Shown here: piece by piece, positions 24,731 to 41,193 of the stretch
Position numbering within the stretch: position 1 is the stretch's first letter
How the letters are laid out: every line of letters starts with the position of its first letter
Source of the DNA: a virus
Length of the DNA: 64,000 nucleotides
Virus record (IMG/VR): IMGVR_UViG_3300045988_116681
Span: 48,632-112,631 of that record
Direction: 5' to 3' (one strand)
The notes under the pieces: generated by a model
What the model was told of the DNA's origin: nothing
Seen by the model: the letters and a program-made list of their open reading frames with translations, nothing else
Database searches by the model: none
Program-made: the position numbers and the translations under genes

Positions 24731-25216
24731 TTATCTCAATCCGTAGATTGTTTGAATTACTGGTGCGGGGAAATGCTCTGTATCATATTGGGATAAATAT
24801 ACTTCGTCAAGTTTAACTGAAGAATCAAGCCTTGAAGTCGAATCACTGTAAATATTTCCTTGAGCATCATAAGCAAGACCTTGAATCACTGTGTTCCACC
24901 ATCTCCAAGAGGTCGTTCCAACACATTGTGTACATCTATTAAATGTCATACAAAAACTATTATCTTCAGTAAACAAATGATTGCCACGATACGAGTAAAT
25001 AAACAAATAATATGAGTTTGAAGTAAGAGCGACATATTGTAAAGCCACGCCCTTAGGTACAGTAACAACATTCATTACAGAAGCGTAAGAATCATAGTCA
25101 ACAAAATGTGAATAAGTGCCTGTGCTTGTGATTTCTCGCTGACCAATAATATTCCAACCCAATCCATTAGAAGCGGGTGGAGTATAAGCATCTGAAAGCA
25201 TTACTTTTGCGTTCAT
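24731..25216 (-). CDS. hypothetical 161-aa protein, downstream partner of B4
   Basis: ATG at 25216 (MNAKVML..) sits in an ATGA context. It is the end point of the stop-free -1 frame that runs across B4. Confidence 0.6.
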   Translation of the reverse strand: MNAKVMLSDAYTPPASNGLGWNIIGQREITSTGTYSHFVDYDSYASVMNVVTVPKGVALQYVALTSNSYYLFIYSYRGNHLFTEDNSFCMTFNRCTQCVGTTSWRWWNTVIQGLAYDAQGNIYSDSTSRLDSSVKLDEVYLSQYDTEHFPAPVIQTIYGLR

Positions 25217-25238: not shown

Positions 25239-25544
25239 TTAGTGGAATAATAGCACTTGGATTCCATACCAATTTGTGAGACAATTCAAAGTAATATCGT
25301 GTTCTGTTATGCTGACAACCATCCGATTTGCGTTTTGAGTATAAAAATAGCCTGATTGCACAAAGGTTTCTGCAACGTATTCTGTTGATAAAGAAGGATA
25401 CAAACTTCCGCTTACCACAATCATTTTCACAGGAGCGTTGAGAGGAATCACTTTGTTGATACCCTGCTCTAATTCCCCTATTTCGACTGTTGTTACTTGA
25501 AGTGCTGTACCTTCCAACATTTCCTTCATTACTTTTGCATCCAT
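25239..25544 (-). CDS. family B small protein (B4)
   Basis: MDAKVMKEMLEG... It is a paralog of the proteins at 32610, 34998 and 40870. Confidence 0.6.
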   Translation of the reverse strand: MDAKVMKEMLEGTALQVTTVEIGELEQGINKVIPLNAPVKMIVVSGSLYPSLSTEYVAETFVQSGYFYTQNANRMVVSITEHDITLNCLTNWYGIQVLLFH

Positions 25545-25656: not shown

Positions 25657-25689
25657 AGACCAAATCCTCCTTTATAAAATATATTAACC

Positions 25690-26547
25690 TCACATAAAAG
25701 CAGAGGTTTGAATCTTAGTAACCATGTTGCTTAGAGCAACAGCAAGTTCTTGCCTTGTTACTTGCTTAGTAGGATTGAACTTACCGTGATTATCGCCCTG
25801 CATAACGCCATACTTTGTTACGATTTCAACAGCGTCACGCGCCCAATCGTCAACATTATCCTTATCTTCGTACATCGCCAAAGGGTCTTTCTTTAGGTAA
25901 ACGCAAAATGCGCTATCAACCTTGCGATTCTCAGAAGGATTGTTTACAACCTTGCCGTTGTGTAGCTTTCTTACGCTACCACCGCCATCAAGGTTCATAG
26001 CATAAACTGCATGATATTGTAGAAAAATTGCAGTCATTTGCTCAAAAGTCATACCGGGCTTATCTACGGTCAGCACAAGAACATTACCAGTCTCAGTAAT
26101 GCCAATAGCGGTACGAGCCGTTCTGTAATTCAGTGTCTTAGCATTGCCATATTCCTTGTTTGCCTTGCCGTCAATAACCAGCATAGGATAAGCGGTCATA
26201 AAGTCGCGCCATTCCTTTTCGTTATCCTTGCCATACTGTAGCGTCTGCGCCTTATAGCAAGTAGTACCCATGCCTACAAAGCCGTTCTTATAGTTTTGCT
26301 CAGTGTACATAGACACGAACGACATGACATTGTGCCCTGTTTTCATATCAAACAAACCGCCATTTACCATGATGTTCGGCTTGTTCTCGGCACGATTATA
26401 GTAATGCTCAAGCATCTCTGTCGGCTCTGCCAACTTACAGAACCTTACTTCTTGAATGCTGTCAAAAGGGATAATATCAAGCTGTGTGTATTCATTTACA
26501 CGCACAGTCTGAAAAGACATATATTCATTCAAAACAAATCTCTCCAA
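25690..26547 (-). CDS. phosphodiester glycosidase (NAGPA-like) with a C-terminal SLH domain
   Basis: AMNLDGGGS is the phosphodiester glycosidase signature. The C-terminal DDWARDAVEIVTKYGVMQG..FNPTKQVTRQELAVAL is SLH-like. The start is uncertain: TTG 26547 or 26532. Confidence 0.65.
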   Translation of the reverse strand: MERFVLNEYMSFQTVRVNEYTQLDIIPFDSIQEVRFCKLAEPTEMLEHYYNRAENKPNIMVNGGLFDMKTGHNVMSFVSMYTEQNYKNGFVGMGTTCYKAQTLQYGKDNEKEWRDFMTAYPMLVIDGKANKEYGNAKTLNYRTARTAIGITETGNVLVLTVDKPGMTFEQMTAIFLQYHAVYAMNLDGGGSVRKLHNGKVVNNPSENRKVDSAFCVYLKKDPLAMYEDKDNVDDWARDAVEIVTKYGVMQGDNHGKFNPTKQVTRQELAVALSNMVTKIQTSAFM

Positions 26548-28247
26548 TCGTCATCGTCAGCAAGCGACTTAACCTTGCTCTTAGGCGCAATCTCGTACTG
26601 TTGAATCATAGCTTGAGGATAGTAGCGACCGTTCCATTCGTTTGTGCAAAGGGTTACTATTGCTTCAAACGTGAATTTGTCATACTTTTCCCATTCAGCG
26701 GATTGTTCTTCGCTTAATCTAAACTTGATAAAATCTACGCCGTAAGCACTGATTTTACCTGTTGTTGTTTTCTTTCTGAATAAACGAACCCAGTTTTGAT
26801 AGCAAGTAAACTTGACATAAAACGTAGGTTCAACAACACCGCTACCTGCGCTACCCCACATATCTTTGTATTCTTCACAGTTCATACAGAGTGGAAGATT
26901 GATTTGCTGTGGAGTCAACCTTGCTGTAACATCTATTGTATCACAAATTACATCATTTGTCAAGTGCGAATCAAGATATTTTAGAAGTTTTTTTAGATTG
27001 GCTTTAGGCATGATTAAGCCAGAAGCACACTCGTGACCTTCAGCCTTGGCAAGTCGTGATTCATTGATGATACTTGCAATGGGGAAAGGTGAGCGCATAC
27101 TACCAGAGTATTGTGTTGGATTGACTGGACGCAGGATGAAAGACGGCTTATTCACAAGTGATAACATCTTATTCGCTACCAGTCCAGTATAGTTAGCTTG
27201 CTCATTCTCGATAAATCCAACAGCGGCTTTATGCTCGTTATCCATATCTTCTGTAATTGTAGACATAATCTCGTCTACAGTTTTGCGTTGTTCGTTTACA
27301 GCCTTGCGAAGAACGGCAATACCACCTGCCATATCACATTTGCCAACAAGCGACTCAAAGAAAATCCGCTTGCCTTCTTGGTCATTACTGCGACATAGAG
27401 CGTTGATTGGTGGAATACAACCAAAGGAAAAGCCGTGTGGGTCTGTTTCACCCTTGTAATTTAACGTCTGCACAAGTTCATTTAGTTCTGGCGCGTAGGC
27501 AAGATTCTTAATTCCGTCTATAAAATATGTTCGGTTTTCAAGACTTGTCATATCACATACATCGCTAATTAGACTAACGGCGATAAAAGGGGTATATTCT
27601 TGATAATTTCTAATCTCGGTAATTGGGTCTAAATAAAGTTCGCCATATCGCTCAATCAGCTTAAAGGTAACACCTGTACCTGACAAAGCTGTATTTAGTC
27701 CATTACCAAGATGATGATTGACCACTGTGGCATAGTTATTGCTTGTGGGCGTGGTTTCATGGTGGTCACATACGATGGTCTGCACGCCATTTTCCTTCAG
27801 CGTCATACAAGGTTCATTGTCGGAACTGCCAGCGTCAGGAATGATTAGTAGCTTTGCACCAGAATCAATGACTTGTTGTACCATATTTTCTTCTGGTGCT
27901 CTCAAGCCATGTTGCTTCGCGGTATGGAATAGAACTTGAATTTTGTCTTGAGGAACGTCAAGATACTCTTTTAGAAATTTGTACATGATTGCGCTTGAAA
28001 GATTGCCGTCAGTATCGCTGTCAACGCAAATCGCAACTTTTTCGCCCTTTTCAACCGCTGTCTTAATCTCAGCACAAGCATCATCAATGTTAGGATAATC
28101 GCCAGCGTAATCATAGCAATAAGCCACATCGCCATTGCCAGAGAGGTCGATATAACGCTCGACCTCATCTGCCTTCACGCCACAAGCTACCAGATATTCA
28201 CGAATGAAATCTCCTGTGACTTTATTTAAGAGTGGGCGTACCTTCAT
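26529..28247 (-). CDS. DHH-family phosphoesterase (RecJ-like ssDNA exonuclease)
   Basis: VDSDTDGNLS, IIPDAGSSD and VCDHH (DHH motifs I-III). Confidence 0.75.
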   Translation of the reverse strand: MKVRPLLNKVTGDFIREYLVACGVKADEVERYIDLSGNGDVAYCYDYAGDYPNIDDACAEIKTAVEKGEKVAICVDSDTDGNLSSAIMYKFLKEYLDVPQDKIQVLFHTAKQHGLRAPEENMVQQVIDSGAKLLIIPDAGSSDNEPCMTLKENGVQTIVCDHHETTPTSNNYATVVNHHLGNGLNTALSGTGVTFKLIERYGELYLDPITEIRNYQEYTPFIAVSLISDVCDMTSLENRTYFIDGIKNLAYAPELNELVQTLNYKGETDPHGFSFGCIPPINALCRSNDQEGKRIFFESLVGKCDMAGGIAVLRKAVNEQRKTVDEIMSTITEDMDNEHKAAVGFIENEQANYTGLVANKMLSLVNKPSFILRPVNPTQYSGSMRSPFPIASIINESRLAKAEGHECASGLIMPKANLKKLLKYLDSHLTNDVICDTIDVTARLTPQQINLPLCMNCEEYKDMWGSAGSGVVEPTFYVKFTCYQNWVRLFRKKTTTGKISAYGVDFIKFRLSEEQSAEWEKYDKFTFEAIVTLCTNEWNGRYYPQAMIQQYEIAPKSKVKSLADDDDWRDLF

Positions 28248-29398
28248 ACGTTCACACCTTCGTGTTTGAGATAATCACAAATTGGGACAAGAGCCTTGAA
28301 GTCGGGGCTGTGAATTGCTGGATAGCACTCTGGCATACCCCATTCGGGCTTGAACGTCAGAGACACACACGTTTGATTACCAAAGTGCGTCATTTTATTA
28401 TACTCACCAATCGCCCACTGTTTAATATGGCACAGACCCACTGGCTTGTTTCCACAATATAGTGCCTTAATAGACTTACTGTCAAACTGCTCTACCGCTT
28501 CGTTAAACGGAATAGCTACATACATTTCACAATCTGGGTTATTGAGAACGTCAAATCCAAAAGACCATGAATCACCTGCGGAACTGTAAGCAATATCAGC
28601 ATAAATTTCTGTCTTTCTACCGTTTTCACGAGAATAGGCGAAATTAGCTACATTATAGCTATTGTCATCCTTGTAGAAAGTGACAATCGTCTTACCGCCA
28701 AGCACATCATCAATCGACTTTTTGCTCGGCTTCTTGCTTACCTTCGGCTTAATCATAAAGCTACGACCCTTGGTAGCACGACCATAACCAGAGCGATATG
28801 CGGCGACAACCATCTTCTTGACAACAGAAGAATACATATCAATATCTCCAACACGGATTGGAACAAACTGGTTTAGTTTTGGCTTCAGCATTTCCCATAC
28901 TTCGTCATCGGTGTAATCATATTCTTCGCAAGTGAACGACGGCTTAACATCGTCCTCACTGCACCACCATGACATTGTGGCATCTCCCCAATCAACTAAT
29001 AGGGTATTCTCGCCAAGCGCTCCCGTGCCAATCGTTTTTACAGTACCAACAGTGCCAACTGCGGGATAGAATCGACTTATCGTTTCATGCTTTTGTGAAT
29101 TAGTGAAAACAACCTTATCGCCAACCTTAAACTTGCTCATATTACAAACTTCCTTTTGTGTATTTACTTGCGTATTTGCGTTGACTTTTGCCAATCTCTT
29201 CTCGCTACACCACCAAGCATATTCACCATGAAGATTAGGGTCTACTCCCGAATCTTGACCCCAATCAACAAGAGCATTTTCATCACGGAGTGAATACTTA
29301 ACTACAACACCAATACTACCCTTCATAGGATAATACTCTGGATTGTACGCATGAGGTTCTTTTTCCATCATCATTACTTCATCGCCAACATTAAACAT
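28244..29398 (-). CDS. hypothetical protein with two SH3-like repeats
   Basis: ATG at 29398 in a TAATG overlap. The module GD.V....YP..G..G.V..LVDWG...WWCSE occurs twice. Confidence 0.6.
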   Translation of the reverse strand: MFNVGDEVMMMEKEPHAYNPEYYPMKGSIGVVVKYSLRDENALVDWGQDSGVDPNLHGEYAWWCSEKRLAKVNANTQVNTQKEVCNMSKFKVGDKVVFTNSQKHETISRFYPAVGTVGTVKTIGTGALGENTLLVDWGDATMSWWCSEDDVKPSFTCEEYDYTDDEVWEMLKPKLNQFVPIRVGDIDMYSSVVKKMVVAAYRSGYGRATKGRSFMIKPKVSKKPSKKSIDDVLGGKTIVTFYKDDNSYNVANFAYSRENGRKTEIYADIAYSSAGDSWSFGFDVLNNPDCEMYVAIPFNEAVEQFDSKSIKALYCGNKPVGLCHIKQWAIGEYNKMTHFGNQTCVSLTFKPEWGMPECYPAIHSPDFKALVPICDYLKHEGVNV

Positions 29399-29793
29399 TA
29401 TCTTACACGCTCCTTCATCTTGTTGCAAAAGCCCTGAAAACTATCGTGAACATAGTCCTTAACGAGACACATAACAGGATGGTCTACATCATTAATCGCA
29501 ATCCATGACTCGCACTCGTCATCTTCAAATGGACACCAATACTTGTCCTTGGTGTAAATTTTAAGAATCATATCTTCTTCGTCATACTCAATGTAATCGA
29601 AGCGAGATTCACTACTATGTTCACGAAACTTTTTGCTTGTGTCCTTCTCACGGCGGAACAGTGACGCTTCTTTAAGCATCTCACTCGCAAACAGAATGAA
29701 ATTGTCAACAGGAATAAATGATTCTGTTCCGTCAATCATGCCGACATACACCAGTGGCTCACCTTCGTGCTTCAACACTTTACCAAAAAACAT
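29398..29793 (-). CDS. hypothetical protein
   Basis: 131-aa ORF, the first gene after the promoter at 29827. Confidence 0.6.
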   Translation of the reverse strand: MFFGKVLKHEGEPLVYVGMIDGTESFIPVDNFILFASEMLKEASLFRREKDTSKKFREHSSESRFDYIEYDEEDMILKIYTKDKYWCPFEDDECESWIAINDVDHPVMCLVKDYVHDSFQGFCNKMKERVR

Positions 29794-29826
29794 ATTAAAT
29801 AACCTCCTTGGTTTGTTTGTGAGTAC

Positions 29827-29855
29827 ATTGTATCACATACCAAGGAGGTTGTCAA
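29827..29855 (-). promoter_or_regulatory. sigma-A-type promoter with a conserved upstream A/T module
   Basis: TTGACA-17-TACAAT, preceded by ATAAAATTTCATAAT. Confidence 0.7.
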
Positions 29856-29874
29856 TAGAAATTATGAAATTTTA

Positions 29875-30144
29875 TTAGTCTTTCTTTGGAACAGTATAAG
29901 ACTTAGCATTAGTGCTATCGCCCAACCCTGCTGTGGTAGGGTCATTGAGCGCGTTCCAAATATTTGATGCAACAAGGAATAGGCAGTAAGGATTTGATAC
30001 AGTGCCCTTAATCACGTTCCATACGCCCATCCAAGTTGTGAGGTCTGCCGCTGTCAGACCTGCATAAGCAAGTGCAGTGGCAAAAGCACCAATAATGATT
30101 TGTACCCAAAAGGTCGGGTTCTTAATTCTCACTTTTAGATTCAT
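29875..30144 (-). CDS. holin (Phage_holin_1 / LL-H type)
   Basis: KNPTFWVQIIIG..TWMGVWNV..NPYCL..DPTTAGLGDS pattern, directly downstream of the endolysin. Confidence 0.8.
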   Translation of the reverse strand: MNLKVRIKNPTFWVQIIIGAFATALAYAGLTAADLTTWMGVWNVIKGTVSNPYCLFLVASNIWNALNDPTTAGLGDSTNAKSYTVPKKD

Positions 30145-30147
30145 ACT

Positions 30148-31878
30148 TTATTCCTCCCCATACATACCCGCTCTATCGTTAATAACAAGAACTCGTAGCA
30201 AATCTTCACTCAAGTCAAGACCCTTGCCATTGCCCTTGAGATAGCCCTTGTCTACCAACTTCTTAATAGTTGCCTTGCCCCAGTCTGGAACTTCAGCAAC
30301 ACTATTATATACCTTATTATACTTGTCGTATACTTGTTCAGCAATCTTACCAGCCACTTGATTAGCAATCTTCTTTGCTTCGGACTGAGCAATAGCTGTA
30401 GTTTCTGCCTTAGTCATGTCATCAACCTTTCTAACCATTTGTAAAAATTCTGTCCATTGTTCATAGTGTTTTACAAAAGGTTCAGGACAGTTACCAACAA
30501 TAAAAGTTCTTCCCTTTTGACGAATAAGAATATATCCTGTTGGCACACTTACACACGAAACTCGTGCATTTCTTTTTTCAACACTATATTGTTTATCACC
30601 TATTGTATAATTACAAGTGGCAATATCTACACTATCATAATGATATTTTTTATAATGATTTTTAGCATGAAGAGCCTTTTTTGCCCTCATTCCATGCGTA
30701 GCACAAATAGCTTGAACAACGTCTAAATTTTTTTCAATAACGGAGCAATAATTATTTTTTGCTACGCATCCATCAACTTGTAACAATTCTTCCCAAAAAA
30801 CTTCAAATTGATTTTGTGTCATTTCAATCCAATCATAGGTAAATTGTTTATCAGATAACCATTTGCAACACCAATCATAAGTAATTTTGTCAAATTTTAC
30901 ATAAATTAGAGTACTTCCATCATTTTTATAAGAAATCTGAGGAACAATTTCCATTTCATTTAACAAAGACAGTAATCTATCAATTTTTCTTTGTCTTTTA
31001 AAATGGAACTCGATACCATAAATTGAATTAGAAGGTTTCCATCTTCTATAATGACCATCACCTTGAAGCCATACTAAAAAACGAATTTCATTGTCTGAAA
31101 GAGGTAGACCTTTATTTTCATAAAAACCGTTGGTTTTTATCATGGTTGTTCTGCCTTTGTCAAGAATCTCTTGATAAGATTTTTCTTCCCATCTCTCGTT
31201 AGCGTGATAAAAACGCGCCCACATACGGTGATTAGCAGTAGCTTCAAAATTATGGTTCTTTAGAACTTCAGCTTCGTAAGGCTCAACCACGCTACTAACA
31301 GCGCCAAAAGATAGTCTATCAGTATTAGTGTCATACTGCATAACTTCTTCTCCAACCTTAATATCTCCAAGAGCCTTCCAACCTTCTCGTGTTAGAAGTT
31401 CGGTTGAATCCAAAGGTAAACAATACTTATGCGTAACATGATAGTGCATACACACATGGTTAATATCAATACCATACTGTTCCATTAGCCACTGTACCAG
31501 CTTTACAGTGCGCTTCTGGGTTTCCATAGTAATTACATATTCACCGTTCTTCCAGTCGCTACACATTTCAATACCAATGGAATTAACGTTGCGACAGCTA
31601 TTGTAATAATAGCCTGTTTCACTACCACAATGCCATGCTGTGTTAGCAAGGTTTACAGTCTGCCAAATTTCATTCTCGTCAACAAAGAAATGTGCGCTTG
31701 CATTAAGCCCACCGCAACGAGCAAAATAATCTGCATTGTTCTTTGCAGTATCGCCCTTGCCAGCAGTAAAGTGAATAACAATCCATTGAATCTTATGCTT
31801 TACGCCATTCTTAGTTCGACCATACATGAAATTAGATTCATTACATTGCTTAAATTGAAAATAAGGTTTTTCTGCCAT
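30148..31878 (-). CDS. N-acetylmuramoyl-L-alanine amidase endolysin (Amidase_2) interrupted by an intein
   Basis: The exteins join as ..HVTHKY|CPEPF.., restoring the K.CP zinc-ligand motif. The N-extein carries the AHFFVD and GIEMC motifs. The C-terminal tail is a putative wall-binding region. Confidence 0.85.
   Translation of the reverse strand: MAEKPYFQFKQCNESNFMYGRTKNGVKHKIQWIVIHFTAGKGDTAKNNADYFARCGGLNASAHFFVDENEIWQTVNLANTAWHCGSETGYYYNSCRNVNSIGIEMCSDWKNGEYVITMETQKRTVKLVQWLMEQYGIDINHVCMHYHVTHKYCLPLDSTELLTREGWKALGDIKVGEEVMQYDTNTDRLSFGAVSSVVEPYEAEVLKNHNFEATANHRMWARFYHANERWEEKSYQEILDKGRTTMIKTNGFYENKGLPLSDNEIRFLVWLQGDGHYRRWKPSNSIYGIEFHFKRQRKIDRLLSLLNEMEIVPQISYKNDGSTLIYVKFDKITYDWCCKWLSDKQFTYDWIEMTQNQFEVFWEELLQVDGCVAKNNYCSVIEKNLDVVQAICATHGMRAKKALHAKNHYKKYHYDSVDIATCNYTIGDKQYSVEKRNARVSCVSVPTGYILIRQKGRTFIVGNCPEPFVKHYEQWTEFLQMVRKVDDMTKAETTAIAQSEAKKIANQVAGKIAEQVYDKYNKVYNSVAEVPDWGKATIKKLVDKGYLKGNGKGLDLSEDLLRVLVINDRAGMYGEE
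30490..31422 (-). mobile_element. intein (311 aa) with a LAGLIDADG homing endonuclease, inside the endolysin
   Basis: Starts CLPLDSTELLT..GDIKVGEEV (Hint N-terminus) and ends ..ILIRQKGRTFIVGN|C (Asn plus Cys+1). Two LAGLIDADG-like motifs: LVWLQGDGH and LLQVDGCV. Confidence 0.8.
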
Positions 31879-31892
31879 TATATCACTTCCTT

Positions 31893-31921
31893 TAGAGAAA
31901 GGGGAGAGACGAACTCTCCCC
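31893..31921 (-). terminator. candidate intrinsic terminator upstream of the endolysin
   Basis: GGGGAGAG-ttcgt-CTCTCCCC followed by TTTCTCT on the minus strand. Confidence 0.45.
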
Positions 31922-31928
31922 TTGATAA

Positions 31929-32144
31929 TTACTTATGAAGCAGACCGTTTTCTTCCAGTAGCTTACGATAAGGAATGCTTAGAAGTTCTGGTACACCAGT
32001 CTTTTCAGCACGCCACTGAATGTAAACAGCACGAGCGAGGTCGTCATGCTCGATGTTGTGAGCGTTATCCCACTTATCAAGTTGAACCCCAATATCTCCT
32101 TCAAGTTTTGCAATGTGTCGATGTTGTAGTTTGTAGTTGTACAT
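31929..32144 (-). CDS. hypothetical protein
   Basis: ATG at 32144 (MYNYKLQHRH..). Confidence 0.5.
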   Translation of the reverse strand: MYNYKLQHRHIAKLEGDIGVQLDKWDNAHNIEHDDLARAVYIQWRAEKTGVPELLSIPYRKLLEENGLLHK

Positions 32145-32167
32145 AATTTTTTCTTCCTTTCTTTTTG

Positions 32168-32590
32168 TTATGCGACTTTTATCCATTCTGTAGGATAACC
32201 AATAATTATTTTTGCAGTCGAAGAAGCAAAATAATCTTTTGCGATTTCTCCTTGCTTTTTAACATATATAATTTTATATTTAATTGTAAAATTATATGTT
32301 CGAGTAAGCGGAGTGCGAGAATAAATTTGTATACCAAATCCAACTTCTTTAGAATTGAGATATAGAGAATTATCGTCAGTAGTATAATAACCCGGTGGTT
32401 CTACATCTACTGTACCGCTTACCCACTGTAAGCCCACAGCAGTGTCTATTCCTAATAATTGAAGTGAAGCAGACGTACCATTTATGAAAGTATTGTTTAT
32501 TGCTAATTCAAAAGTTCCTTCATATACGCCCAACTCCGCAATGCCAGTATCAATTCCTTTACTTCCAAGGTGATTGACGATACTATTCAT
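32168..32590 (-). CDS. family A small protein (A, partner of B1)
   Basis: MNSIVNHLG... Own SD GAGGTGA. The start sits in an ATGA context. Confidence 0.65.
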   Translation of the reverse strand: MNSIVNHLGSKGIDTGIAELGVYEGTFELAINNTFINGTSASLQLLGIDTAVGLQWVSGTVDVEPPGYYTTDDNSLYLNSKEVGFGIQIYSRTPLTRTYNFTIKYKIIYVKKQGEIAKDYFASSTAKIIIGYPTEWIKVA

Positions 32591-32976
32591 GCAATCACCT
32601 CGTTTCTATTTAATAGAACGCTACTGCATAAGCCGAGTCTTTCCCTTGTAAATGGTCTATGGTCATTGTTTTGCCAGCGAATGTTACATCTATATAATCG
32701 TTTTCTGAGTTGGAGTCGGCATAATGGTAAGTTGTTGTTTGTTCGGAATAATAAATGCTTACTGAATATCCGTAATTGTATCCACTGGCAGAATAATACA
32801 TACTTAAAGAAACAAATTTCGGGACGTGAGAGAAAGTAAATTTTATTTCTTCGTTGTAGGCTTCTGCTTCTTTGTATTCCGCAGTTAAGCCTTGCACTTG
32901 TAAAGGCTCTCCCATAATCTTTCCGTTCATCTACTCTGCCCCCCCCAAGTCTCATTGAGGTTTGCATATTATACAT
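32587..32976 (-). CDS. leader ORF L2, which as assembled (G8) continues through all of B1 in the -1 frame and stops on the start codon of the A gene
   Basis: This is the same frame as track ORF 32587..33030. ATG at 32976 follows AAAGGA. Its TGA (32587-32589) overlaps ATG 32588-32590. Confidence 0.4.
   Translation of the reverse strand: MYNMQTSMRLGGGRVDERKDYGRAFTSARLNCGIQRSRSLQRRNKIYFLSRPEICFFKYVLFCQWIQLRIFSKHLLFRTNNNLPLCRLQLRKRLYRCNIRWQNNDHRPFTRERLGLCSSVLLNRNEVIA
32610..32930 (-). CDS. family B small protein (B1)
   Basis: MNGKIMGEPLQVQGLTAEYKE... A paralog of the 40870 protein (shared ..GLTAEY.. and ..VTF(A/S)GK.. segments). Confidence 0.65.
   Translation of the reverse strand: MNGKIMGEPLQVQGLTAEYKEAEAYNEEIKFTFSHVPKFVSLSMYYSASGYNYGYSVSIYYSEQTTTYHYADSNSENDYIDVTFAGKTMTIDHLQGKDSAYAVAFY
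32939..32946 (-). repeat. G8 homopolymer 8 nt upstream of the B1 ATG
   Basis: Sense strand reads GAGACTT-G8-CAGAGTAG-ATG. Confidence 0.95.
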
Positions 32977-33002
32977 ATTGCTCAAATTCCTTTCTGAGCA
33001 AT
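32977..33002. repeat. inverted repeat ATTGCTCA-10 nt-TGAGCAAT
   Basis: The TTGAGCAA motif in both orientations. The loop contains the leader SD. Confidence 0.8.
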
Positions 33003-33026
33003 GAGAAGGAGATGAAGGATAAAAAG

Positions 33027-33356
33027 TCAAGACAAAGTGCCTAATTCAAGATACTTAAAATAGGGTGAAATTGAATTATTATAATAGTTTTCAACCTTGA
33101 AATGCCCCTCCCCGAAATAGAACCACACCGCAGGACTATTTTCGCCAAAGGCACCATACGAGAACTCTATTACTTCCTTAAAAACACTCACTTTACCAAT
33201 CATTACGCTGTTGTCGGTCATCATCAACTTAAAATATAAACTCGCATCTGTTGTTGCAATTTTTACAACTGAGCTACCTTCTGCTACATCTTGATGAATA
33301 GCACTCTTAAAATGAATTGTTCCTTCTACACCCTTACCTGTTACAATCCCATCCAT
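33027..33356 (-). CDS. family A small protein
   Basis: MDGIVTGKG....LELGTLS. Confidence 0.65.
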   Translation of the reverse strand: MDGIVTGKGVEGTIHFKSAIHQDVAEGSSVVKIATTDASLYFKLMMTDNSVMIGKVSVFKEVIEFSYGAFGENSPAVWFYFGEGHFKVENYYNNSISPYFKYLELGTLS

Positions 33357-33406
33357 CAGCCGACACTTCCCTTCATGCCAGCCATCTCATTGCTCATATT
33401 AAATTT

Positions 33407-33469
33407 TAGGAGAATGCTAACGCATTGCCCCCCCCAACCGAAGTCAGGGTTGACTGAATGTTAAACATA
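33407..33469 (-). CDS. leader ORF L1 (20 aa as assembled)
   Basis: AAGGAGAA, 4 nt, then ATG. It translates to MFNIQSTLTSVGGGNALAFS*. Confidence 0.45.
33429..33436 (-). repeat. G8 homopolymer in L1
   Basis: Counted C8 on the plus strand. Confidence 0.95.
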
Positions 33470-33514
33470 ATGTTCTCCTTTTTGTGTAGTTATATTTGAG
33501 CAATGAGTAGAGGG

Positions 33515-33859
33515 TTATTCTAACAACCCAAAATCCACCGAGGAAATATACAAAGACAAATTATTATTGTTAAAACCAAAACCAACATATTCTATTCCTT
33601 CAGTATTAGTATAATCTATGCTAAACGAAGGAGAGTAGTCGCCTGAACTATTTCTAAAAGTAAAATAATTAGTACCTCTTAAAGTTTCATACTTAAAAAT
33701 GCTAATTTGTCCATATAAATCAACGATTTTAACATATGGCGCAATTCTGTCTACAAGAAAGTTAATATGGAACGTATTTAACGCATCGTCTTTATATGAT
33801 TTTTTACTCATGAATGTCAAAGCATTAGCAGTAAATGGCTTATTAACAATCCCATTCAT
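33515..33859 (-). CDS. family A small protein
   Basis: MNGIVNKPF....VDFGLLE. Confidence 0.65.
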   Translation of the reverse strand: MNGIVNKPFTANALTFMSKKSYKDDALNTFHINFLVDRIAPYVKIVDLYGQISIFKYETLRGTNYFTFRNSSGDYSPSFSIDYTNTEGIEYVGFGFNNNNLSLYISSVDFGLLE

Positions 33860-33969
33860 ACAGTCACCTGCTTTCGGTGACTCACATTGCTCAAATATTC
33901 AGTTGTTAGGGAGTTATTGCCCCCCCCCAAGTGAAGCATAAGTTCACTCAGAGAAAACTTGATACGCAT
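33856..33969 (-). CDS. leader ORF L3 (37 aa), terminating in ATGA on the start of the A gene
   Basis: AAGGAGTG SD. It translates to MRIKFSLSELMLHLGGGNNSLTTEYLSNVSHRKQVTV*. Its TGA overlaps ATG 33859. Confidence 0.5.
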   Translation of the reverse strand: MRIKFSLSELMLHLGGGNNSLTTEYLSNVSHRKQVTV

Positions 33970-34003
33970 GGTATCACTCCTTGTTGTTTAATTGAGCAAC
34001 GTG
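33883..34003. repeat. 12-bp inverted repeats (1 mismatch) CACATTGCTCAA / TTGAGCAACGTG flanking leader L3
   Basis: Arms at 33883-33894 and 33992-34003. Confidence 0.8.
33920..33928 (-). repeat. G9 homopolymer in L3
   Basis: Counted C9 on the plus strand. Confidence 0.95.
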
Positions 34004-34013
34004 TGTGATGTGA

Positions 34014-34415
34014 TTAGGATTTTAAGGCAAGCGCTAAATAGAAGCGAGTACCATCTTGGACATTATTTTTGAACAATCGGCATATTATACCAGTATTGAT
34101 AATGTTAAAATCACAATAATAAATATCGCTTGTTCCATTTGTAGTACCCGTTTTATATATTTTAGAACTTAATAAAACATGATTGCTTGTACTGCCACCT
34201 ATAACATCAGCCTTATACTCATATATAGATAGACACGGTGAAGCATAGTACCACGCATTGTCACAACCAATAAGCAAAAGCTTGCAACTATTGTGCGATT
34301 CTTCGTACCAATATAGTATCTGAAATTGTTCACTGGTAGCTTCTGCGGTGATAATATCATCAACATTGATACTTATGTCAGCCAGTTCAGCCAGCTTATT
34401 CACAATCCCATTCAT
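34014..34415 (-). CDS. family A small protein
   Basis: MNGIVNKLAEL... ATG at 34415; the track ORF begins at the GTG one codon earlier. Confidence 0.65.
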   Translation of the reverse strand: MNGIVNKLAELADISINVDDIITAEATSEQFQILYWYEESHNSCKLLLIGCDNAWYYASPCLSIYEYKADVIGGSTSNHVLLSSKIYKTGTTNGTSDIYYCDFNIINTGIICRLFKNNVQDGTRFYLALALKS

Positions 34416-34493
34416 CACATGACCCCCTTACTTGCGTATAGGAGGTTGCCAATCCTGTTGCTCAAAGGAAAGGCGTTAATGACCATTAGAAGG

Positions 34494-34532
34494 TCAGAAG
34501 AACGCCCCCCCCAAGTTAAAGCGAAGGTTCAT
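34494..34532 (-). CDS. leader ORF L4 (12 aa as assembled)
   Basis: AAAGGAGAA SD. It translates to MNLRFNLGGAFF*. Confidence 0.4.
   Translation of the reverse strand: MNLRFNLGGAFF
34505..34512 (-). repeat. G8 homopolymer in L4
   Basis: Counted C8 on the plus strand. Confidence 0.95.
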
Positions 34533-34588
34533 AATTTTGTTCTCCTTTGTTTAATTTTGAGCAACATTAGATGGGTGGTTAGATTGAT

Positions 34589-34978
34589 TTATCCAAACAC
34601 ATAATAATGAACGTTTTTTATTTTGCCACTTTGATTATTCAAATGAAAAGTTATTTTATTGTTTGAATAATCATAGTTCAAATTTTCTATGTCTATAGAA
34701 GAATATCGCACATAAGTTGGGTTGTCACCATCATATTCATAAAGTCTATATGAAAACCCCGAAGTTGAGTTGAGTGGAATCATTTGAACAAATTGCGCTC
34801 TAATTAACATAGATGACGGATTTGGAATAACCACTACTGCCATCGCTTGTGCGTCTATTGGCAATGATTGAAAATCAAAAATAGGAAGTGATACTTCATG
34901 AATGTTACTTGAATAACTACCTTCAAATGAAAAACACTTGTTTTGATTTACAAGTACAGGATTCACGATACCATTCAT
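34589..34978 (-). CDS. family A small protein (partner of B3)
   Basis: MNGIVNPVL... ATG at 34978 in a TGATG context. Confidence 0.65.
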   Translation of the reverse strand: MNGIVNPVLVNQNKCFSFEGSYSSNIHEVSLPIFDFQSLPIDAQAMAVVVIPNPSSMLIRAQFVQMIPLNSTSGFSYRLYEYDGDNPTYVRYSSIDIENLNYDYSNNKITFHLNNQSGKIKNVHYYVFG

Positions 34979-34997
34979 CAAGCCACCCCCTTGAGGG

Positions 34998-35309
34998 TCA
35001 GCCTAAGAATGTCACCAATAAGGGGTCGCTTACGTTGTTGTATTCTATCCGAACAGTGCCAACAGAATAACGAACTATCTGCACTCTTGCTGAAGTAACA
35101 CTTTGGTCTATTAAATATAATTTGTCTGCCGAAAGTAAAGGTAAATAAATCATTGCACCTATCAACGCACTTATGTTGTCTACACTTATTGTGCAAAATA
35201 AAGGTGTTACATCGAAGCCAAAAGTTAGCCCTCTGGTAATGGATTTTGCTTGCAATACTTTTAACCCGCTCATGGATTTTTCTACTTCTTGAATAATCTT
35301 TCCATCCAT
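34998..35309 (-). CDS. family B small protein (B3)
   Basis: MDGKIIQEVEKSM... ATG at 35309 in a TAATG overlap with leader L5. Confidence 0.6.
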   Translation of the reverse strand: MDGKIIQEVEKSMSGLKVLQAKSITRGLTFGFDVTPLFCTISVDNISALIGAMIYLPLLSADKLYLIDQSVTSARVQIVRYSVGTVRIEYNNVSDPLLVTFLG

Positions 35310-35410
35310 TAGTACGCCCACCTCTCTTGTTGCTCAACCGAGAGGTAATCATCGGTGGGCTTACTTGGCGTATGCCCCCCCCAGTGACGGGGAGTTTTAG
35401 TCTTAATCAT
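35309..35410 (-). CDS. leader ORF L5 (33 aa), terminating TAATG on the B3 start
   Basis: GGAGAA SD. It translates to MIKTKTPRHWGGHTPSKPTDDYLSVEQQERWAY*. Confidence 0.45.
   Translation of the reverse strand: MIKTKTPRHWGGHTPSKPTDDYLSVEQQERWAY
35375..35382 (-). repeat. G8 homopolymer in L5
   Basis: Counted C8 on the plus strand. Confidence 0.95.
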
Positions 35411-35422
35411 ATGTATTTCTCC

Positions 35423-35830
35423 TTACATATTGTCTACAATTTCATGCATCTTATCTTCTAAATGAATTGCAATGAACGATAGTAACGCCCATGCAAAGCA
35501 GAAGAATAGATTGCACTGTCCAAAAAAGAAGGTAAATGGTAAGTGGCTGTAGTCCCACACACCCATGTGTAAGATATTATTCAGCACTACACCAGTCAAT
35601 CCTTCAAGAACCGTGATAACCACAGTTCCAATTACTACTTGTTGCCATTGCTTGTATTGGTGTTTTCCTTCATTTAGCAATCCTACAATGACGAAACATA
35701 AGCCGCCGAGAACTGCCATAGTCCAGTTGGTTGGTTTACCCTTCCAAATGGTTTCGATGGCGAAGTAAATCCCGCCACCCATCACACCAAATAGCGCATG
35801 AACAAGTATTGAATTTAGTTTATGCTTCAT
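35423..35830 (-). CDS. polytopic membrane protein
   Basis: Four or more hydrophobic helices. ATG at 35830 lies just after the upstream stop. Confidence 0.55.
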   Translation of the reverse strand: MKHKLNSILVHALFGVMGGGIYFAIETIWKGKPTNWTMAVLGGLCFVIVGLLNEGKHQYKQWQQVVIGTVVITVLEGLTGVVLNNILHMGVWDYSHLPFTFFFGQCNLFFCFAWALLSFIAIHLEDKMHEIVDNM

Positions 35831-35834
35831 AGCT

Positions 35835-36521
35835 TTAAGCCAACTTAGCAAGCATAGCGTCCATCTGAGCCTTTGCAGAAGCCAATACCTTAACTTCTTG
35901 CTCTGCTAACTTACCAGTTAGTTCAGTTGCAAGGGTAATCGCTTTAACAGTTTCCTTATCCTCACAGCTATTAGCAAACTGCCGCAAAAGATTGCAATGT
36001 GTGGTCAGTTTAGTAATGAGCGTTTGCATTGCTACATACAAACTAACAATATCAGCCTTTGGATAAATCACACATTCCTTGCCGTCAGCGTGATAAGGAA
36101 ATTCCTCAACGCCCATAACAACTGCATTGAAGATGTTGCCAATGTTGGCTTGGTCGTTTGCTGTTAGGCTGAAATGTTCATCGCCGTAAGAAGTCTTAAC
36201 GTCAACGCCAGCGTAAATAGTCTGCTCAGTAGTATCATTGAGTGACTTAATAGCTTCTGCACGAACTTCTTCAATGGTCGGCTCGTATGGTGTCGGCTTA
36301 ACTTCTTCGTCTACATTGATATGAACAGCATTACCAGTACACTTCCATACCTTGTAATCAGCCTTTTCGTATGCTACCAGTAGCTTGCCATCATCAGAAG
36401 TGAACATTAGTTCATCGCCAAGTTCAATATCGTGATTGCCGTTAAGATACATAGTACATACCTTATCGTTCAGCATACCAGTAACATTGTTATATGTCTT
36501 GCCATTAGTTAGTAGTTTCAT
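35835..36521 (-). CDS. hypothetical protein (tail-fibre-associated, DUF4376-like)
   Basis: 228 aa, coupled by ATGA to the tail-fibre-like gene. The family call comes from recalled sequence patterns only. Confidence 0.5.
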   Translation of the reverse strand: MKLLTNGKTYNNVTGMLNDKVCTMYLNGNHDIELGDELMFTSDDGKLLVAYEKADYKVWKCTGNAVHINVDEEVKPTPYEPTIEEVRAEAIKSLNDTTEQTIYAGVDVKTSYGDEHFSLTANDQANIGNIFNAVVMGVEEFPYHADGKECVIYPKADIVSLYVAMQTLITKLTTHCNLLRQFANSCEDKETVKAITLATELTGKLAEQEVKVLASAKAQMDAMLAKLA

Positions 36522-36919
36522 TACTGCACCTCACCTACAACTTGAACAACAAACCCTGATTGTGGAGCAGAATTACCGCTTGTAGTAAGAGTTAGTGTGT
36601 TATTACCTGTCTGACCATAGTCTGCAAGCAGAGCGAACGCAGCTTTTTCATTTGCCGCTGTTGCCGAGTCAGAAGATGGTAGAAGATAAATGATTGGCTG
36701 ATAGCGCATTGTTTCAGCAAGACCTTGAATAGTCTGTGTCTGCTTGTAAACGCCGCCCTGTAGTGTCCAGCCAGCTTTCGTAAAGGTTGCAGTACCGAAC
36801 ACTGTTTTGCCAACTTCAAGGTTGGTTCGTGCTCCCAGCGCCGTAGTAGCGCCAGTACCGCCATCGGGGATTGAAACTGGGGTGGAAATACCCTGTCCCA
36901 GTATACCGCCAAAACCCAT
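36521..36919 (-). CDS. tail-fibre-like protein
   Basis: VSIPDGGTGATTALGARTNL matches the GGTGATTAxxAR.NLG motif that recurs at the N-termini of phage tail-fibre proteins. Confidence 0.6.
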   Translation of the reverse strand: MGFGGILGQGISTPVSIPDGGTGATTALGARTNLEVGKTVFGTATFTKAGWTLQGGVYKQTQTIQGLAETMRYQPIIYLLPSSDSATAANEKAAFALLADYGQTGNNTLTLTTSGNSAPQSGFVVQVVGEVQ

Positions 36920-36975
36920 ACTTTGTCACTTCCTTTTCTATAAATTTAGGCGAATCTCTCGCCTTTGATATTAGC

Positions 36976-37004
36976 ATTATACCACATCCTTATACACTTG
37001 TCAA
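36976..37004 (-). promoter_or_regulatory. sigma-A-type promoter
   Basis: TTGACA-17-TATAAT. Confidence 0.7.
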
Positions 37005-37026
37005 GGGGTAAATTGTAAATAATTTG

Positions 37027-38118
37027 TTAATTATTCAGAATATCAATCGTCCGCGCTTCATACAGCTTTTGCCATGTCTGAAAGTCGCGGTCTACTGCAT
37101 TTTCTTTACGCTCAAGTAGACCCAAGCTATCCCACACAACATCAACTTGTGCAAGACCAGACCATAGTTCAGCTTGCTTCATAATCTTGTTGTTCCATTG
37201 CTCAAACTCTGCGTCTGTACCGCCAGTAGCATCATTATCTACAATAAGGACAACATGGTTAACGCCCAACTTCAGCAGTTGATTCCTGCGCTGTAAGCCA
37301 AGCTGTGAGCCAAACATAGCGACTGCCGTTGATTGTGAGCCAAGAAAACTATGCAATTTGAGCACCGCTTTCTCGCTTTCGGCAATCATTACAGTACCAG
37401 TACGCTCTATTTCATATTGATTCTGCGCCAATCCGTATAGAACTGCATTAGTAGGGAACTTATAGATAGTGCCATCCAACAGTTGCAAAGGTCGATATTT
37501 ACCATTTATTGCATTTTCACCCCAATACCTACAGCGAATCCCTACCAAGTCATAATTTTCATTAAACACAGGAATGGTCGTTCCCCATTCTCGCCCATAC
37601 CAACCGATACGAAACAAGGCTTGCGTTTCTTCGCTTATACCTTCATTTACCCATGCTTGACACGGCATATTGGGTATAGTGTCAAGAATAGATGCGTCAT
37701 AAGTCGGCAATAAGCTACCGCCATTTCGTACTGTAATGAACTTCTCAAGTCCAGACCAATCCGTAATATTGGGGTTGGCTACACGCTGAACTTGAGAAGA
37801 TTCAATACCAGTAACATCAAGAATGTAATTTACCGCGTCTATGAAAGAGCAAGGTTGCTTTAGTAGAGATAATCGTGTTTGTGTTAGTGAGATAATGTCG
37901 TATGAACGCCCAGCGGTTAGACCAAGGTAAACGCTTGTGTCTGGATAAAATAGTAATTTTGCTGAACCATCTAAAGCATTAACATTCTTATCGCCAGTAA
38001 AATAAATAATTTCATTTGGGCGTTCCATAAAGATAGGAATACCCAACGACTTCATTATCTTCTTGTGGTCATCAATAGTTAATCGGGCTTTCAGAGCCTT
38101 AGTATTTATCTTAGCCAT
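37027..38118 (-). CDS. DNA primase (Toprim domain)
   Basis: MIAESEKAV (Toprim Glu) and LIVDNDATGG (DxD). Confidence 0.65.
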   Translation of the reverse strand: MAKINTKALKARLTIDDHKKIMKSLGIPIFMERPNEIIYFTGDKNVNALDGSAKLLFYPDTSVYLGLTAGRSYDIISLTQTRLSLLKQPCSFIDAVNYILDVTGIESSQVQRVANPNITDWSGLEKFITVRNGGSLLPTYDASILDTIPNMPCQAWVNEGISEETQALFRIGWYGREWGTTIPVFNENYDLVGIRCRYWGENAINGKYRPLQLLDGTIYKFPTNAVLYGLAQNQYEIERTGTVMIAESEKAVLKLHSFLGSQSTAVAMFGSQLGLQRRNQLLKLGVNHVVLIVDNDATGGTDAEFEQWNNKIMKQAELWSGLAQVDVVWDSLGLLERKENAVDRDFQTWQKLYEARTIDILNN

Positions 38119-38136
38119 TTCCAGCCCGTCCTTTAC

Positions 38137-38553
38137 TTACTCAATATCTGCTACATAATATCCTTTAGCTACATAAAGATGAACCCCATCGTCCGCGTTA
38201 AGCGCAAACAAAATAGAATTGCCACAAGCGACAAACTTTAGCGATTCATCTGGGTGAGCAAGGAAATAATCAATGGCTTCACGAATCCAATCGTTAATCT
38301 CTTGGTCACTCTGCTGAACACCGCCATTAAAATCATAAAAATCTTCTGGAAAACGCGGTGGGTTGCTTAGTGAGAATGTTTCTGCACAAAAACCATTACA
38401 TTCAGGGCAAATCACATATGCGTTATTGTGAATATCGCGCTGTACGTCATCACTATCGTACTCAAATTCACAACCACAAATAGGGCAAGTTACACGCTTT
38501 GTTACAATTTCGCGTGCGGTACTCTTAGTATCACCGTGCTTAATTACCTTCAT
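38137..38553 (-). CDS. hypothetical zinc-ribbon protein
   Basis: CPICG..CPECNG. ATG at 38553 lies 6 nt after AGGAGG. Confidence 0.5.
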   Translation of the reverse strand: MKVIKHGDTKSTAREIVTKRVTCPICGCEFEYDSDDVQRDIHNNAYVICPECNGFCAETFSLSNPPRFPEDFYDFNGGVQQSDQEINDWIREAIDYFLAHPDESLKFVACGNSILFALNADDGVHLYVAKGYYVADIE

Positions 38554-39667
38554 TTTCATCCTCCTGCTCTTCTTGTGAAATGCCATAAGTTACAATAAAT
38601 TCCTTTACTGCCTTGGCAAATTCATCAATTTCGGCTTGTGTGGTGGGAGTAACACCGCCGTCAAAACTTAGCCGAATACATTCGCTTGCTTCTTTTTCGG
38701 AATAACCAGCGTGCATTAGTACGCGATAACGCTCCTTACCATCTTCACATGAACTGTGCCCTACGCCAATGTAAATCTTCTTACTTGCGAGGAAAACCTG
38801 CAATGCGTCAGCGTACACACCATTGATACGAAGGCACACAATATCAGTGATGTAATCTTCTGCGCCAGATAGAGCCATTGTACTGTACTTAACGCCTTGC
38901 TCAAACAGCGCATTTCTAACAGCATTATCCCATTCTTCTGTACAGCGATGATTATAATGCACTACACTACGCATAAGCGCATAAGCTGTACTTGTTGCAC
39001 TGTCAACGTCAGGTGTACCGATATAATCAATACCATTCAGCCATTCATTAAATCGGTCGCTTACCCAAATAAAGCCTTGACCCTTTTCACCGTGGAATTT
39101 ATGAGCACTGGCAATAACGCAATCACAGAAATCTTCAAGGTGCTCTGGAATATCATACTTGCCAATGCTTGCGGTCATGTCACACACAAAAAAGCCGTTA
39201 AGTTCTCGCGTCACAGTGCCAATGTCAACAACAGGGAAAACTTCACCAGTGATATTGGAAACAAGCTGACAAAATGTAATAGGTGTCCTATTAAGACAGC
39301 AGTCTTTTACCACTTTTTTATCGCATAGTTCTTCAATATTATAAGCAAACACTGGATTGCTGGCAATACATTCATGCTCATAGGGTGAACTCATCATACG
39401 ATAATTCTTGTCTGGAACATCGTCATCGTCAAAGGCTTCAACCCATGCTTCACTGATTTTGTTAAACAAATAGTCAAACATCTTGCTTGCTGTACCGCCA
39501 AACACAACCTTGCCAGAACTTACGCCAAGCGAATGCTTTACGCTGTTTTCTGCATTAAATAGTGCTTCACGGCTCTCAGCACCATAAGGCGTGTTAGCGT
39601 TCAACCAAGTACAACTATAAGACGTGTACTTAGGGAAAGTGGTAGCCGCACTATCAAGATAAATCAT
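38540..39667 (-). CDS. class V aminotransferase / cysteine desulfurase-like (NifS/IscS/DndA-type)
   Basis: MIYLDSAATT at the N-terminus and SAHKFHG (the PLP-binding lysine). Confidence 0.7.
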   Translation of the reverse strand: MIYLDSAATTFPKYTSYSCTWLNANTPYGAESREALFNAENSVKHSLGVSSGKVVFGGTASKMFDYLFNKISEAWVEAFDDDDVPDKNYRMMSSPYEHECIASNPVFAYNIEELCDKKVVKDCCLNRTPITFCQLVSNITGEVFPVVDIGTVTRELNGFFVCDMTASIGKYDIPEHLEDFCDCVIASAHKFHGEKGQGFIWVSDRFNEWLNGIDYIGTPDVDSATSTAYALMRSVVHYNHRCTEEWDNAVRNALFEQGVKYSTMALSGAEDYITDIVCLRINGVYADALQVFLASKKIYIGVGHSSCEDGKERYRVLMHAGYSEKEASECIRLSFDGGVTPTTQAEIDEFAKAVKEFIVTYGISQEEQEDENEGN

Positions 39668-40869: not shown

Positions 40870-41193
40870 TTAGAAGAAGCCTACTGCAAAAACCTTGCTT
40901 GCACTGACTGAAGATAATTCTATATTTTTCCCAGAAAATGTTACATAAAATGAATTGGTTTGTGAACCTTCCAAAGCGTAATACACATAGCAATTGTCTG
41001 GAAACCATGCTATATTCACGCTGTATGCTGCGTTTGAAGTGTACCTTTGAGGACTCCAAAGTGTTAGGCTTACAAAACTCGGCGCTTGGGAAAAAGAAAG
41101 CGTGACTTCTTGTTGATGGACTTCTTCTTCGAGATACTCTGCCGTCAGCCCGTTTTCCTGCTCCACAAATTCCTTCATTACTTTTGCGTTCAT
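40870..41193 (-). CDS. family B small protein (B2)
   Basis: MNAKVMKEFVEQENGLTAEY... Confidence 0.65.
   Translation of the reverse strand: MNAKVMKEFVEQENGLTAEYLEEEVHQQEVTLSFSQAPSFVSLTLWSPQRYTSNAAYSVNIAWFPDNCYVYYALEGSQTNSFYVTFSGKNIELSSVSASKVFAVGFF

Follow-up and report, generated by a model that had tools for sequence, protein, structure and literature searches.

A poly-G tract in a leader open reading frame of a human-gut phage may direct ribosomes to alternative cistrons through a stop-free frame that crosses a whole gene

Poly-G contingency has been described in the receptor-binding genes of Campylobacter Fletchervirus phages (Sorensen et al. 2021, via PMC12823448 and PMC11959909) and is called exceptional in PMC11959909; homopolymer contingency loci have recently been reported in T2 and T4 as well (PMC12633550). 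In those phages the tract lies inside the regulated gene, where it truncates the product. The locus considered here lies in a 64,000-nucleotide stretch of DNA (the window; positions 48,632 to 112,631 of IMG/VR virus record IMGVR_UViG_3300045988_116681) from a human-gut phage with a genome of ~113 kb. At 32587-33030 of the window, a leader open reading frame (ORF) with a run of eight G residues (G8) precedes two genes, referred to hereafter as B1 and A. The locus shares with the Fletchervirus and T2/T4 loci a variable homopolymer in a phage genome, ON/OFF heterogeneity and fast-evolving genes that probably act in host interaction. It differs from them in that the tract belongs to a separate leader ORF, no regulated protein is ever frameshifted, control would be exerted through the site at which the leader terminates, and the third frame is cleared of stops across a whole gene.

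Three-state translational phase variation is known from the lic1 locus of Haemophilus, where CAAT repeats in licA bring alternative in-frame start codons into play. As in lic1/licA, three repeat phases at the phage locus would yield three translational outcomes, but the licA repeat lies in the 5' coding region and picks start codons of one gene, whereas the tract described here would pick termination sites and hence cistrons. Translational coupling by termination-reinitiation or by RNA unfolding is established for the trp genes, for coat-lysis pairs of RNA phages and for rpmI-rplT, and depends on stop and start lying close together and on the RNA structure near the downstream ribosome-binding site (RBS) (reviewed in PMC12548453). 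The phage locus resembles these pairs in its overlapping stop and start, its short stop-start distance and a downstream RBS predicted to be hidden in a hairpin; unlike them, its upstream ORF is no protein gene but a leader extended across another gene in a non-coding frame, and a mutable repeat sets which cistron is coupled. Ribosome-mediated RBS occlusion by out-of-frame overlapping upstream ORFs is described for bacteria (PMC13285730). There, as in the eukaryotic upstream ORF ATF4 uORF2, ribosomes from the upstream ORF that pass over the main start block initiation, and the same would hold for B1. Overlaps of these known types are short and end inside the main ORF, whereas this one covers a whole gene (>100 codons) and leads to the next start; the switch here is genetic (repeat length), and theirs is physiological. 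Full-text literature searches and the coupling review (PMC12548453) yielded neither a leader-ORF repeat that chooses among termination sites nor a gene-length stop-cleared frame that carries ribosomes to the next cistron.

The window has a GC content of 38.8%, nearly all of its genes lie on the minus strand, and all features of the B1 locus are on that strand. The Shine-Dalgarno sequence (SD) of the leader, AAAGGA, occupies the loop of a predicted hairpin with an 8-bp stem (ATTGCTCA-GAAAGGAATT-TGAGCAAT, 33002-32977) directly 5' of the leader ATG at 32976. The leader up to the tract (32976-32947) reads MYNMQTSMRL and is kept in relatives. It runs into the tract, assembled as G8 (32939-32946) and present as G8 or G9 among relatives, which is of slippable length (at least seven G or C), fixes the frame of the leader and sits 8 nt upstream of the B1 ATG, for which it may double as an SD-like element. 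The 8-nt spacer between them (CAGAGTAG, 32931-32938) supplies a TAG in one frame and, together with the ATGA of B1, a TGA in a second, so that two of the three leader frames end on or against the B1 start. B1 itself (32610-32930) encodes 106 residues plus a stop, is evolving fast and is predicted to fold as an eight-strand beta-sandwich.

The consequences of tract length put forward in the original prediction held up when the coordinates were checked. A tract of G9 (or G6) brings the leader to a stop at TGA 32929-32927, which overlaps the B1 ATG, and one of G7 or G10 at TAG 32933-32931, which abuts that ATG. With the assembled G8, the ORF that starts at ATG 32976 crosses all of B1 in the -1 frame with zero stops, a stretch of 129 codons (32976-32587), and ends at TGA 32589-32587, overlapping the ATG of gene A at 32590-32588 (ATGA). 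The ORF listed for this interval (32587-33030) counts 147 residues from an upstream TTG and 129 from the ATG. Gene A (32168-32590; 140 residues) lacks a leader of its own, and a predicted hairpin (CGAGGTGATTG...CAATCACCTTG, 32602-32566) hides its SD and start codon and carries the TGA of the -1 frame in its loop. The proposal that tract length decides whether leader ribosomes end at the B1 start or at the A start follows directly from this arrangement.

We favor, with moderate confidence, the reading that the B1 locus is one of four poly-G contingency modules that act through translational coupling, with the -1 frame as a translated conduit. Each module is ordered leader ORF, poly-G tract, B gene, A gene, and the switch would act on translation and not on the frame of a protein. 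Ribosomes would start on the leader at its own RBS and enter a tract of G7-G10, whose length would change by slippage; the frame would be chosen mainly by slippage in the DNA and not by that of RNA polymerase or of the ribosome. In two of the three frames they would end on or next to the B start, and termination-reinitiation would favor B, provided that stopping on a start codon activates the gene behind it. In the third frame, cleared of stops over B and the spacer after it, they would overrun and so repress the B start, melt the A hairpin and terminate at the A ATG; A, which would depend on this relay, would be translated and B bypassed. Selection on the -1 frame would be for openness and end point and not for a product. 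What the analysis shows directly is the anatomy of the modules, the selection against stops in the -1 frame, its end point and phase, the predicted hairpins and the variation in tract length, and the routing proposed originally gains support from the purge of stops at synonymous sites, the open frame in 28 of 31 homologs, the conserved A hairpin and the natural occurrence of both G8 and G9. A broader claim, that a single leader repeat routes ribosomes to alternative cistrons with the states B, A only and neither, that B and A are largely mutually exclusive and that this is an undescribed class of contingency locus, is offered as a tentative one. A strict either/or, with A silent while B1 is on, would go beyond what supports the favored reading.

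An open -1 frame of this length is not what the composition of the phage predicts. Stops in the -1 frame occurred at 0.118 per codon over 67 ORFs of the window, or ~12 per gene of the size of B, and outside the B genes no open -1 run exceeded 53 codons. Two resampling schemes were applied to B1 and to its three paralogs in the window, B2, B3 and B4. When codons were drawn from phage usage (20,000 draws), the mean numbers of -1 stops were 13.3, 9.5, 8.6 and 8.1 for B1 to B4, and draws with zero stops numbered 0, 0, 1 and 1, respectively, giving P(0 stops) <= 5e-5 for each gene under genome codon usage. Permutation of synonymous codons within each gene, a conservative test given that B genes are already poor in T-ending codons, gave probabilities of 5e-5 (B1), 2e-4 (B2), 1.9e-3 (B3) and 3.4e-3 (B4). 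The -1 frame is thus open for longer than chance allows, while the +1 frame of the B genes has a normal 10-18 stops.

The depletion lies at the third codon position (T3 when occupied by T). T was absent there before AA, AG or GA in B1 to B4 (0/103) and over 28 sequences (0/696), compared to 36-45% in background genes, yet it was present before other dinucleotides in 113 of 310 cases in B1 to B4 (Fisher p = 1.4e-17). The avoidance is therefore specific to stop codons, and it is at synonymous sites. Depletion relative to synonymous shuffles had been suggested as a check on the locus, and both the permutation and the T3 test found it for B1 and its homologs. An explanation from composition, in which B genes merely use few T-ending codons or avoid TA and TG dinucleotides, can draw on their low T3 frequency (0.26-0.28, below the 0.40 of the phage overall). 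The probability we leave to it is negligible: the permutation preserves this composition and still returns the low values above, T3 is normal before dinucleotides that form no stop, and zero -1 stops are found in four paralogs and in several alleles that look unrelated to them. We rejected compositional bias as the cause of the open frame on these three grounds.

The same pattern extended to relatives. Twenty related loci were fetched, from which 31 distinct B-like gene sequences were scored. The -1 frame was open in 28 of them and ended at the ATGA or TGATG of the next gene in every one of the 28, while the +1 frame had a mean of 10.9 stops. Alleles with no apparent relationship past their first eight residues, at the positions of B2, B3 and B4, also had zero -1 stops (P(0) <= 2e-4 each, genome codon usage). 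In L027, a locus from a second IMG/VR phage, the gene at the B1 position has no detectable similarity to B1, and its -1 frame is open for 114 codons to the next ATGA. The phase from B to A was identical across five independent modules even though the spacers measure 19 or 22 nt. By comparison, A-type genes in the same cluster of the window (33356..33027, 33859..33515, 34418..34014 and others) have 12-20 -1 stops each. A further cassette, complete with SD and leader, follows each of those, whereas the genes downstream of B are without a leader.

The B1 locus is not the only such arrangement in the window, which contains 13 G/C tracts of 7-9; judging by inspection of the other bases, none would be expected at 39% GC and this size. 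Eleven G7-G9 tracts are on the minus strand, and nine of these sit in seven leader-type cassettes (five with a single tract, two with a double tract) laid out as SD, ATG, about ten codons and the G run; of the remaining two, one is truncated at the edge of the window and one falls within a methyltransferase gene. Four of the cassettes are followed by B-type genes of ~100-107 codons, which are 20-39% identical in amino-acid sequence. In the B2 module (34978-35410, minus strand, as are the next two), the leader ATG at 35410 and G8 at 35375-35382 precede B2 (35309..34998), whose -1 frame has no stop before TGA 34980-34978; this TGA overlaps the ATG with which the next gene (34978..34589) begins. 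The B3 module (40844-41294) has its leader ATG at 41294, G8 tracts at 41256-41263 and 41202-41209, and B3 at 41193..40870, over which the -1 frame runs unbroken to TGA 40846-40844; the ATG of the next gene, at 40847, overlaps this stop. The B4 module (25213-25656) starts at ATG 25656, with G9 at 25622-25630, G7 at 25553-25559 and B4 at 25544..25239, and the open frame ends at TGA 25215-25213, overlapping ATG 25216 of the gene at 25216..24731. From B1 to B4, the openness spans the proximal G tract, the whole gene and the intergenic spacer.

In all cassettes one leader frame ends exactly at the start of the main gene (ATGA or TGATG), while termination is early in the others. The 8-nt spacer with stops in both non-relay frames at the B ATG recurs in B1, B3, B4 and the L027 allele; the B2 leader has one B-ON frame, one early stop and one relay. 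As assembled, B1 is in read-through, B2 is ON, and B3 and B4 are at an early stop; among the other cassettes, that at 33920 is ON and those at 33428 and 34505 are OFF.

Several further features accompany the tracts. In the cassettes between 33356 and 35410 (minus strand; tracts at 33428, 33920, 34505 and 35375), the leaders are flanked by an inverted repeat, GTTGCTCAA ... TTGAGCAA(C/T), and a second hairpin hides the SD of the main gene (for example GTCACC-GAAAGCA-GGTGAC at ~33880-33862); only the leader frame that ends at the main ATG traverses this second hairpin. A C-rich segment (CCTC or CCCC) lies 6-10 nt upstream of every G tract. It is predicted to pair with the first G's, which would account for the conserved motif around the tracts; in B1, CCTCAA in the leader would pair with the start of the tract (region 32943-32960, minus strand). 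A further G8 on the minus strand, at 63993-64000 and cut by the end of the window, precedes an SD and an A-type gene (63592-63954, minus strand) that starts MNAIVV, so the cassette family reaches beyond the two clusters studied.

The signals expected of coupling were found at the B-to-A junctions. Stop and start overlap in all of the open -1 frames and, in addition, in the ON frame of every leader cassette. At the B1-A start the hairpin segment has a predicted minimum free energy (MFE) of -21.4 kcal/mol (z = -4.2). At 26 distinct B-to-A junctions, start regions had a mean MFE of -20.9 kcal/mol, compared to -10.5 kcal/mol for 30 controls (p = 3e-10), and the predicted pairing probability of the SD was 0.69 compared to 0.50; structure prediction thus places the RBS of these genes behind a mask. 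The hairpin is kept with different 3' arms in different modules, and the same stem in L027 has compensatory changes from U-A to C-G and from U-A to A-U. A buried SD in a gene without a leader, as modeled here, is the signature of a gene that would need an upstream ribosome (PMC12548453). Given the established ribosome footprint and helicase position, a ribosome ending at the stop of B itself, 17-22 nt upstream, should reach just the base of the stem, and one on the overlapping TGA should unwind all of it. The positions after B genes are occupied by unrelated A alleles that share just their first 8-9 codons, which form the 3' arm of the hairpin.

Tract length varied between relatives. The B1 tract was G8 in 9 and G9 in 7 of 16 scored loci, and the other cassettes had tracts of 7-10. 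L008 and L009 encode an identical B1 protein behind G9 and G8, respectively. Near-identical contigs from sister samples, L012 and L013, differed over a shared 6.7 kb in little else than one cassette tract, which was G8 in one and G10 in the other (at 5469 and 5467, respectively); this difference is the best available hint of rapid change in tract length. Length thus differs between close relatives, as in contingency loci. Three states were seen in assemblies: early stop, stop at the B ATG and read-through. The B1 leader was in read-through seven times and B-ON seven times, and read-through was also assembled at B2 (L012, L013) and at B3 (L023).

That B is the coding frame was supported by its structure. 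An AlphaFold2 model of B1 built on a 57-sequence alignment was an eight-strand beta-sandwich with a mean predicted local distance difference test score (pLDDT) of 88 and a predicted template-modeling score (pTM) of 0.77, and on this model the B frame is a real gene. Weak fold matches in BFVD were to C-terminal domains of tail fibres (E = 2e-4, template-modeling score 0.5-0.6); a fold search of the PDB with B1 returned nothing significant, and Pfam and PHROGs gave no match for any B, any A or the -1 product. The ratio of nonsynonymous to synonymous change (omega) was 0.60 for B1, compared to 0.07-0.14 in six neighbouring genes, so that B1 evolves about five times faster non-synonymously. Variation among B1 orthologs is concentrated in the middle of the beta-sandwich. 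The model of gene A was too poor for use (pLDDT 50). The tail-fibre gene neighbours, the fast evolution and the fold hint suggest that B and A act in host recognition; against this, the B3 and B4 modules lie among replication and cell-wall-related genes. The converse possibility, a genuine gene in the -1 frame and a spurious B, was rejected on the conservation of the B frame between paralogs and the confident B1 fold.

The original prediction had allowed that the -1 frame might instead yield an Arg/Cys-rich protein, and this was not borne out. Such dual coding, in which leader and -1 frame encode a functional, basic, Cys-rich protein of 129-149 residues that is switched by the tract and alternative to B, could explain why a long ORF is joined at G8 to a leader with SD and ATG, and gene callers annotated a homologous ORF of 143 residues in L012 and L013. 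The -1 peptide is rich in Arg, Lys and Cys, a composition typical of off-frame translation, and its product has no Pfam match at E <= 0.1. Between paralogs its identity was 8-21%, no higher than that of the non-coding +1 control (8-26%), whereas the B frame was clearly conserved, and purifying selection on the -1 amino-acid sequence was thus not detected between paralogs. The synonymous rate (dS) of B1, 0.21, lies inside the 0.16-0.37 of its neighbours and is reduced by about as much as barring T at a quarter of third positions predicts. Among B1 orthologs a crude Nei-Gojobori omega was 0.56 in the -1 frame, 0.59 in the B frame and 1.09 in the +1 frame. The low -1 value speaks for dual coding and leaves room for some constraint on the peptide, but it is ambiguous because the frequent A/G changes at second codon positions of B are synonymous in the -1 frame. 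On balance, selection is on openness and end point and not on the peptide; a functional alternative protein is unlikely, and the tract-switched dual-coding version of it very much so.

Selection for openness without regard to the peptide would also be expected if the open frame served merely to hold ribosomes on the mRNA while the leader is off-phase, sparing the transcript from termination or decay, with A initiating independently. Polarity caused by untranslated stretches is well established (PMC12548453). Promoter and terminator scans gave counts as in shuffled sequence, with no terminator-like site from 36919 to 31921, so that a single transcript probably covers the cluster. Such protection would leave much unexplained, however: 100-135 codons go untranslated and unprotected in the other cassettes and whenever B2, B3 or B4 is at its early stop, coverage of the mRNA needs neither the exact end at the next ATG in every open case nor the kept phase, and the SD of A is predicted to be hidden in a hairpin. 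We therefore regard transit without routing as an unlikely account. A more specific version, in which downstream lysis genes are shielded from polarity, was rejected because a terminator-like hairpin (31921-31903) lies between the cluster and the endolysin gene and no such protection is present at the other cassettes. If, on the other hand, the G run makes RNA polymerase or the ribosome slip, a single genome would supply each of the three frames in constant proportions, and the open -1 frame would be there for the fraction that has slipped. Runs of G8-G9 are intrinsically slippery, several tracts directly precede hairpins (for example those at 25622 and 41256), and homopolymer recoding is well documented (PMC5009743). 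No frame of the leader, however, continues into B or A as a fusion, and the trans-frame product shows no conservation. Recoding is nonetheless doubtful, and we put its chances low, since tract lengths of 7-10 differ at the DNA level between near-identical contigs and three methyltransferase genes of the same phage carry G/C contingency tracts of the classical in-gene type; moreover, recoding would alter how the frame is picked and not the role of the -1 frame as a conduit.

Several observations weigh against the coupling and conduit reading. Initiation on the leader, coupling and repression of B are all things that we infer. The SD of gene A itself (GAGGTGA) is a good one; should the hairpin breathe, A could be translated on its own. 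The stop of B, 17-22 nt upstream of the A ATG, may couple A to B as well, which would make the conduit less needed. The SD spacer of the B1 leader is longish (10-11 nt), and the leader in L009 contains a stop codon. Differences in tract length between assemblies could be partly homopolymer assembly noise, and the ortholog omega of the -1 frame discussed above belongs on this side too. Stops in the -1 frame of homologs, which had been named at the outset as grounds for giving the idea up, were present in just 3 of the 31 sequences, two in L011, a contig with 3.5x coverage, and one in L005. The L005 stop, in its B1 copy (6001-6321), arises from a Gly-to-Asp change, and that copy also has a 1-nt 3' frameshift. 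The frameshift moves the B frame into the usual -1 frame, which then ends ...NRNEVIA at the ATGA of A.

If ribosomes are indeed routed in this way, a complete reading frame can be under selection solely as a passage for ribosomes, which would add a third category to coding and non-coding frames, and methods that take stop-depleted overlapping frames as hidden genes would call for caution. Contingency in phages would extend from the frameshifting of proteins to a multi-state translational router built of a leader ORF, a repeat and coupling hairpins. The cassettes, of which each genome has eleven or more, occur beside tail-fibre genes and elsewhere in the genome, and the system is compact (~450 nt); synthetic biology could borrow its logic for a stochastic switch with three states.

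Public protein collections contain 93 members of the B family, all on human-gut metagenome contigs of up to ~113-114 kb, and the lineage consists of uncultured human-gut phages of roughly 110-114 kb. Neither a megablast of 12 kb nor a tblastn of B3 against 50,697 phage records produced a match, and by these searches the B family is apparently absent from cultured phages. A scan of GTDB genomes with the B profile found no relative and so gave no link to a host or prophage, and Rfam at E <= 1 returned nothing over 24000-42000. The nearest isolates by helicase (38% identity) are ~100-kb phages of Enterocloster bolteae. Two apparent relatives were discarded: a tail-fibre match in MT835849 (L014) belongs to an unrelated phage without poly-G cassettes, and a weak B4 match in L017 was a chance match in a high-GC contig.

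The phage also carries the Fletchervirus-style in-gene type of tract, in three DNA methyltransferase genes with G/C tracts near their 5' ends, one of them out of frame as assembled. In the window, a Dam-like (D12-class) adenine methyltransferase gene (9082-9796, minus strand) is split by G8 at 9718-9725; G7 at that position would restore an ORF of 237 residues (MQYMGGKSR...DPPY), and the gene looks like the classical in-gene phase-variable type. Two methyltransferase-like genes, both in frame on the minus strand, lie at 9886-10605 (C8 at 10551-10558) and 10634-11203 (C9 at 11065-11073); their motifs are DLPY and NPPY, and the poly-C of both reads Pro-Pro-(Pro). Homopolymers are thus present in each of the three methyltransferase genes, which are adjacent.

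The lineage is rich in mobile insertions. A homing-endonuclease-like gene of the HNH/AP2 type occupies the position of the B2 module in L008 (3934-4410) and L009 (3377-3853), and a LAGLIDADG-like ORF splits a gene of the DHH family in L008 (9891-10628). The endolysin (Amidase_2; 30148-31878, minus strand) has 576 residues in the window and 573 in L003, compared to 266-267 in most relatives. Its extra ~310 residues begin with Cys, end ...GN|C and match PHROGs of intein-bearing proteins, and the insertion is probably an intein with a homing endonuclease.

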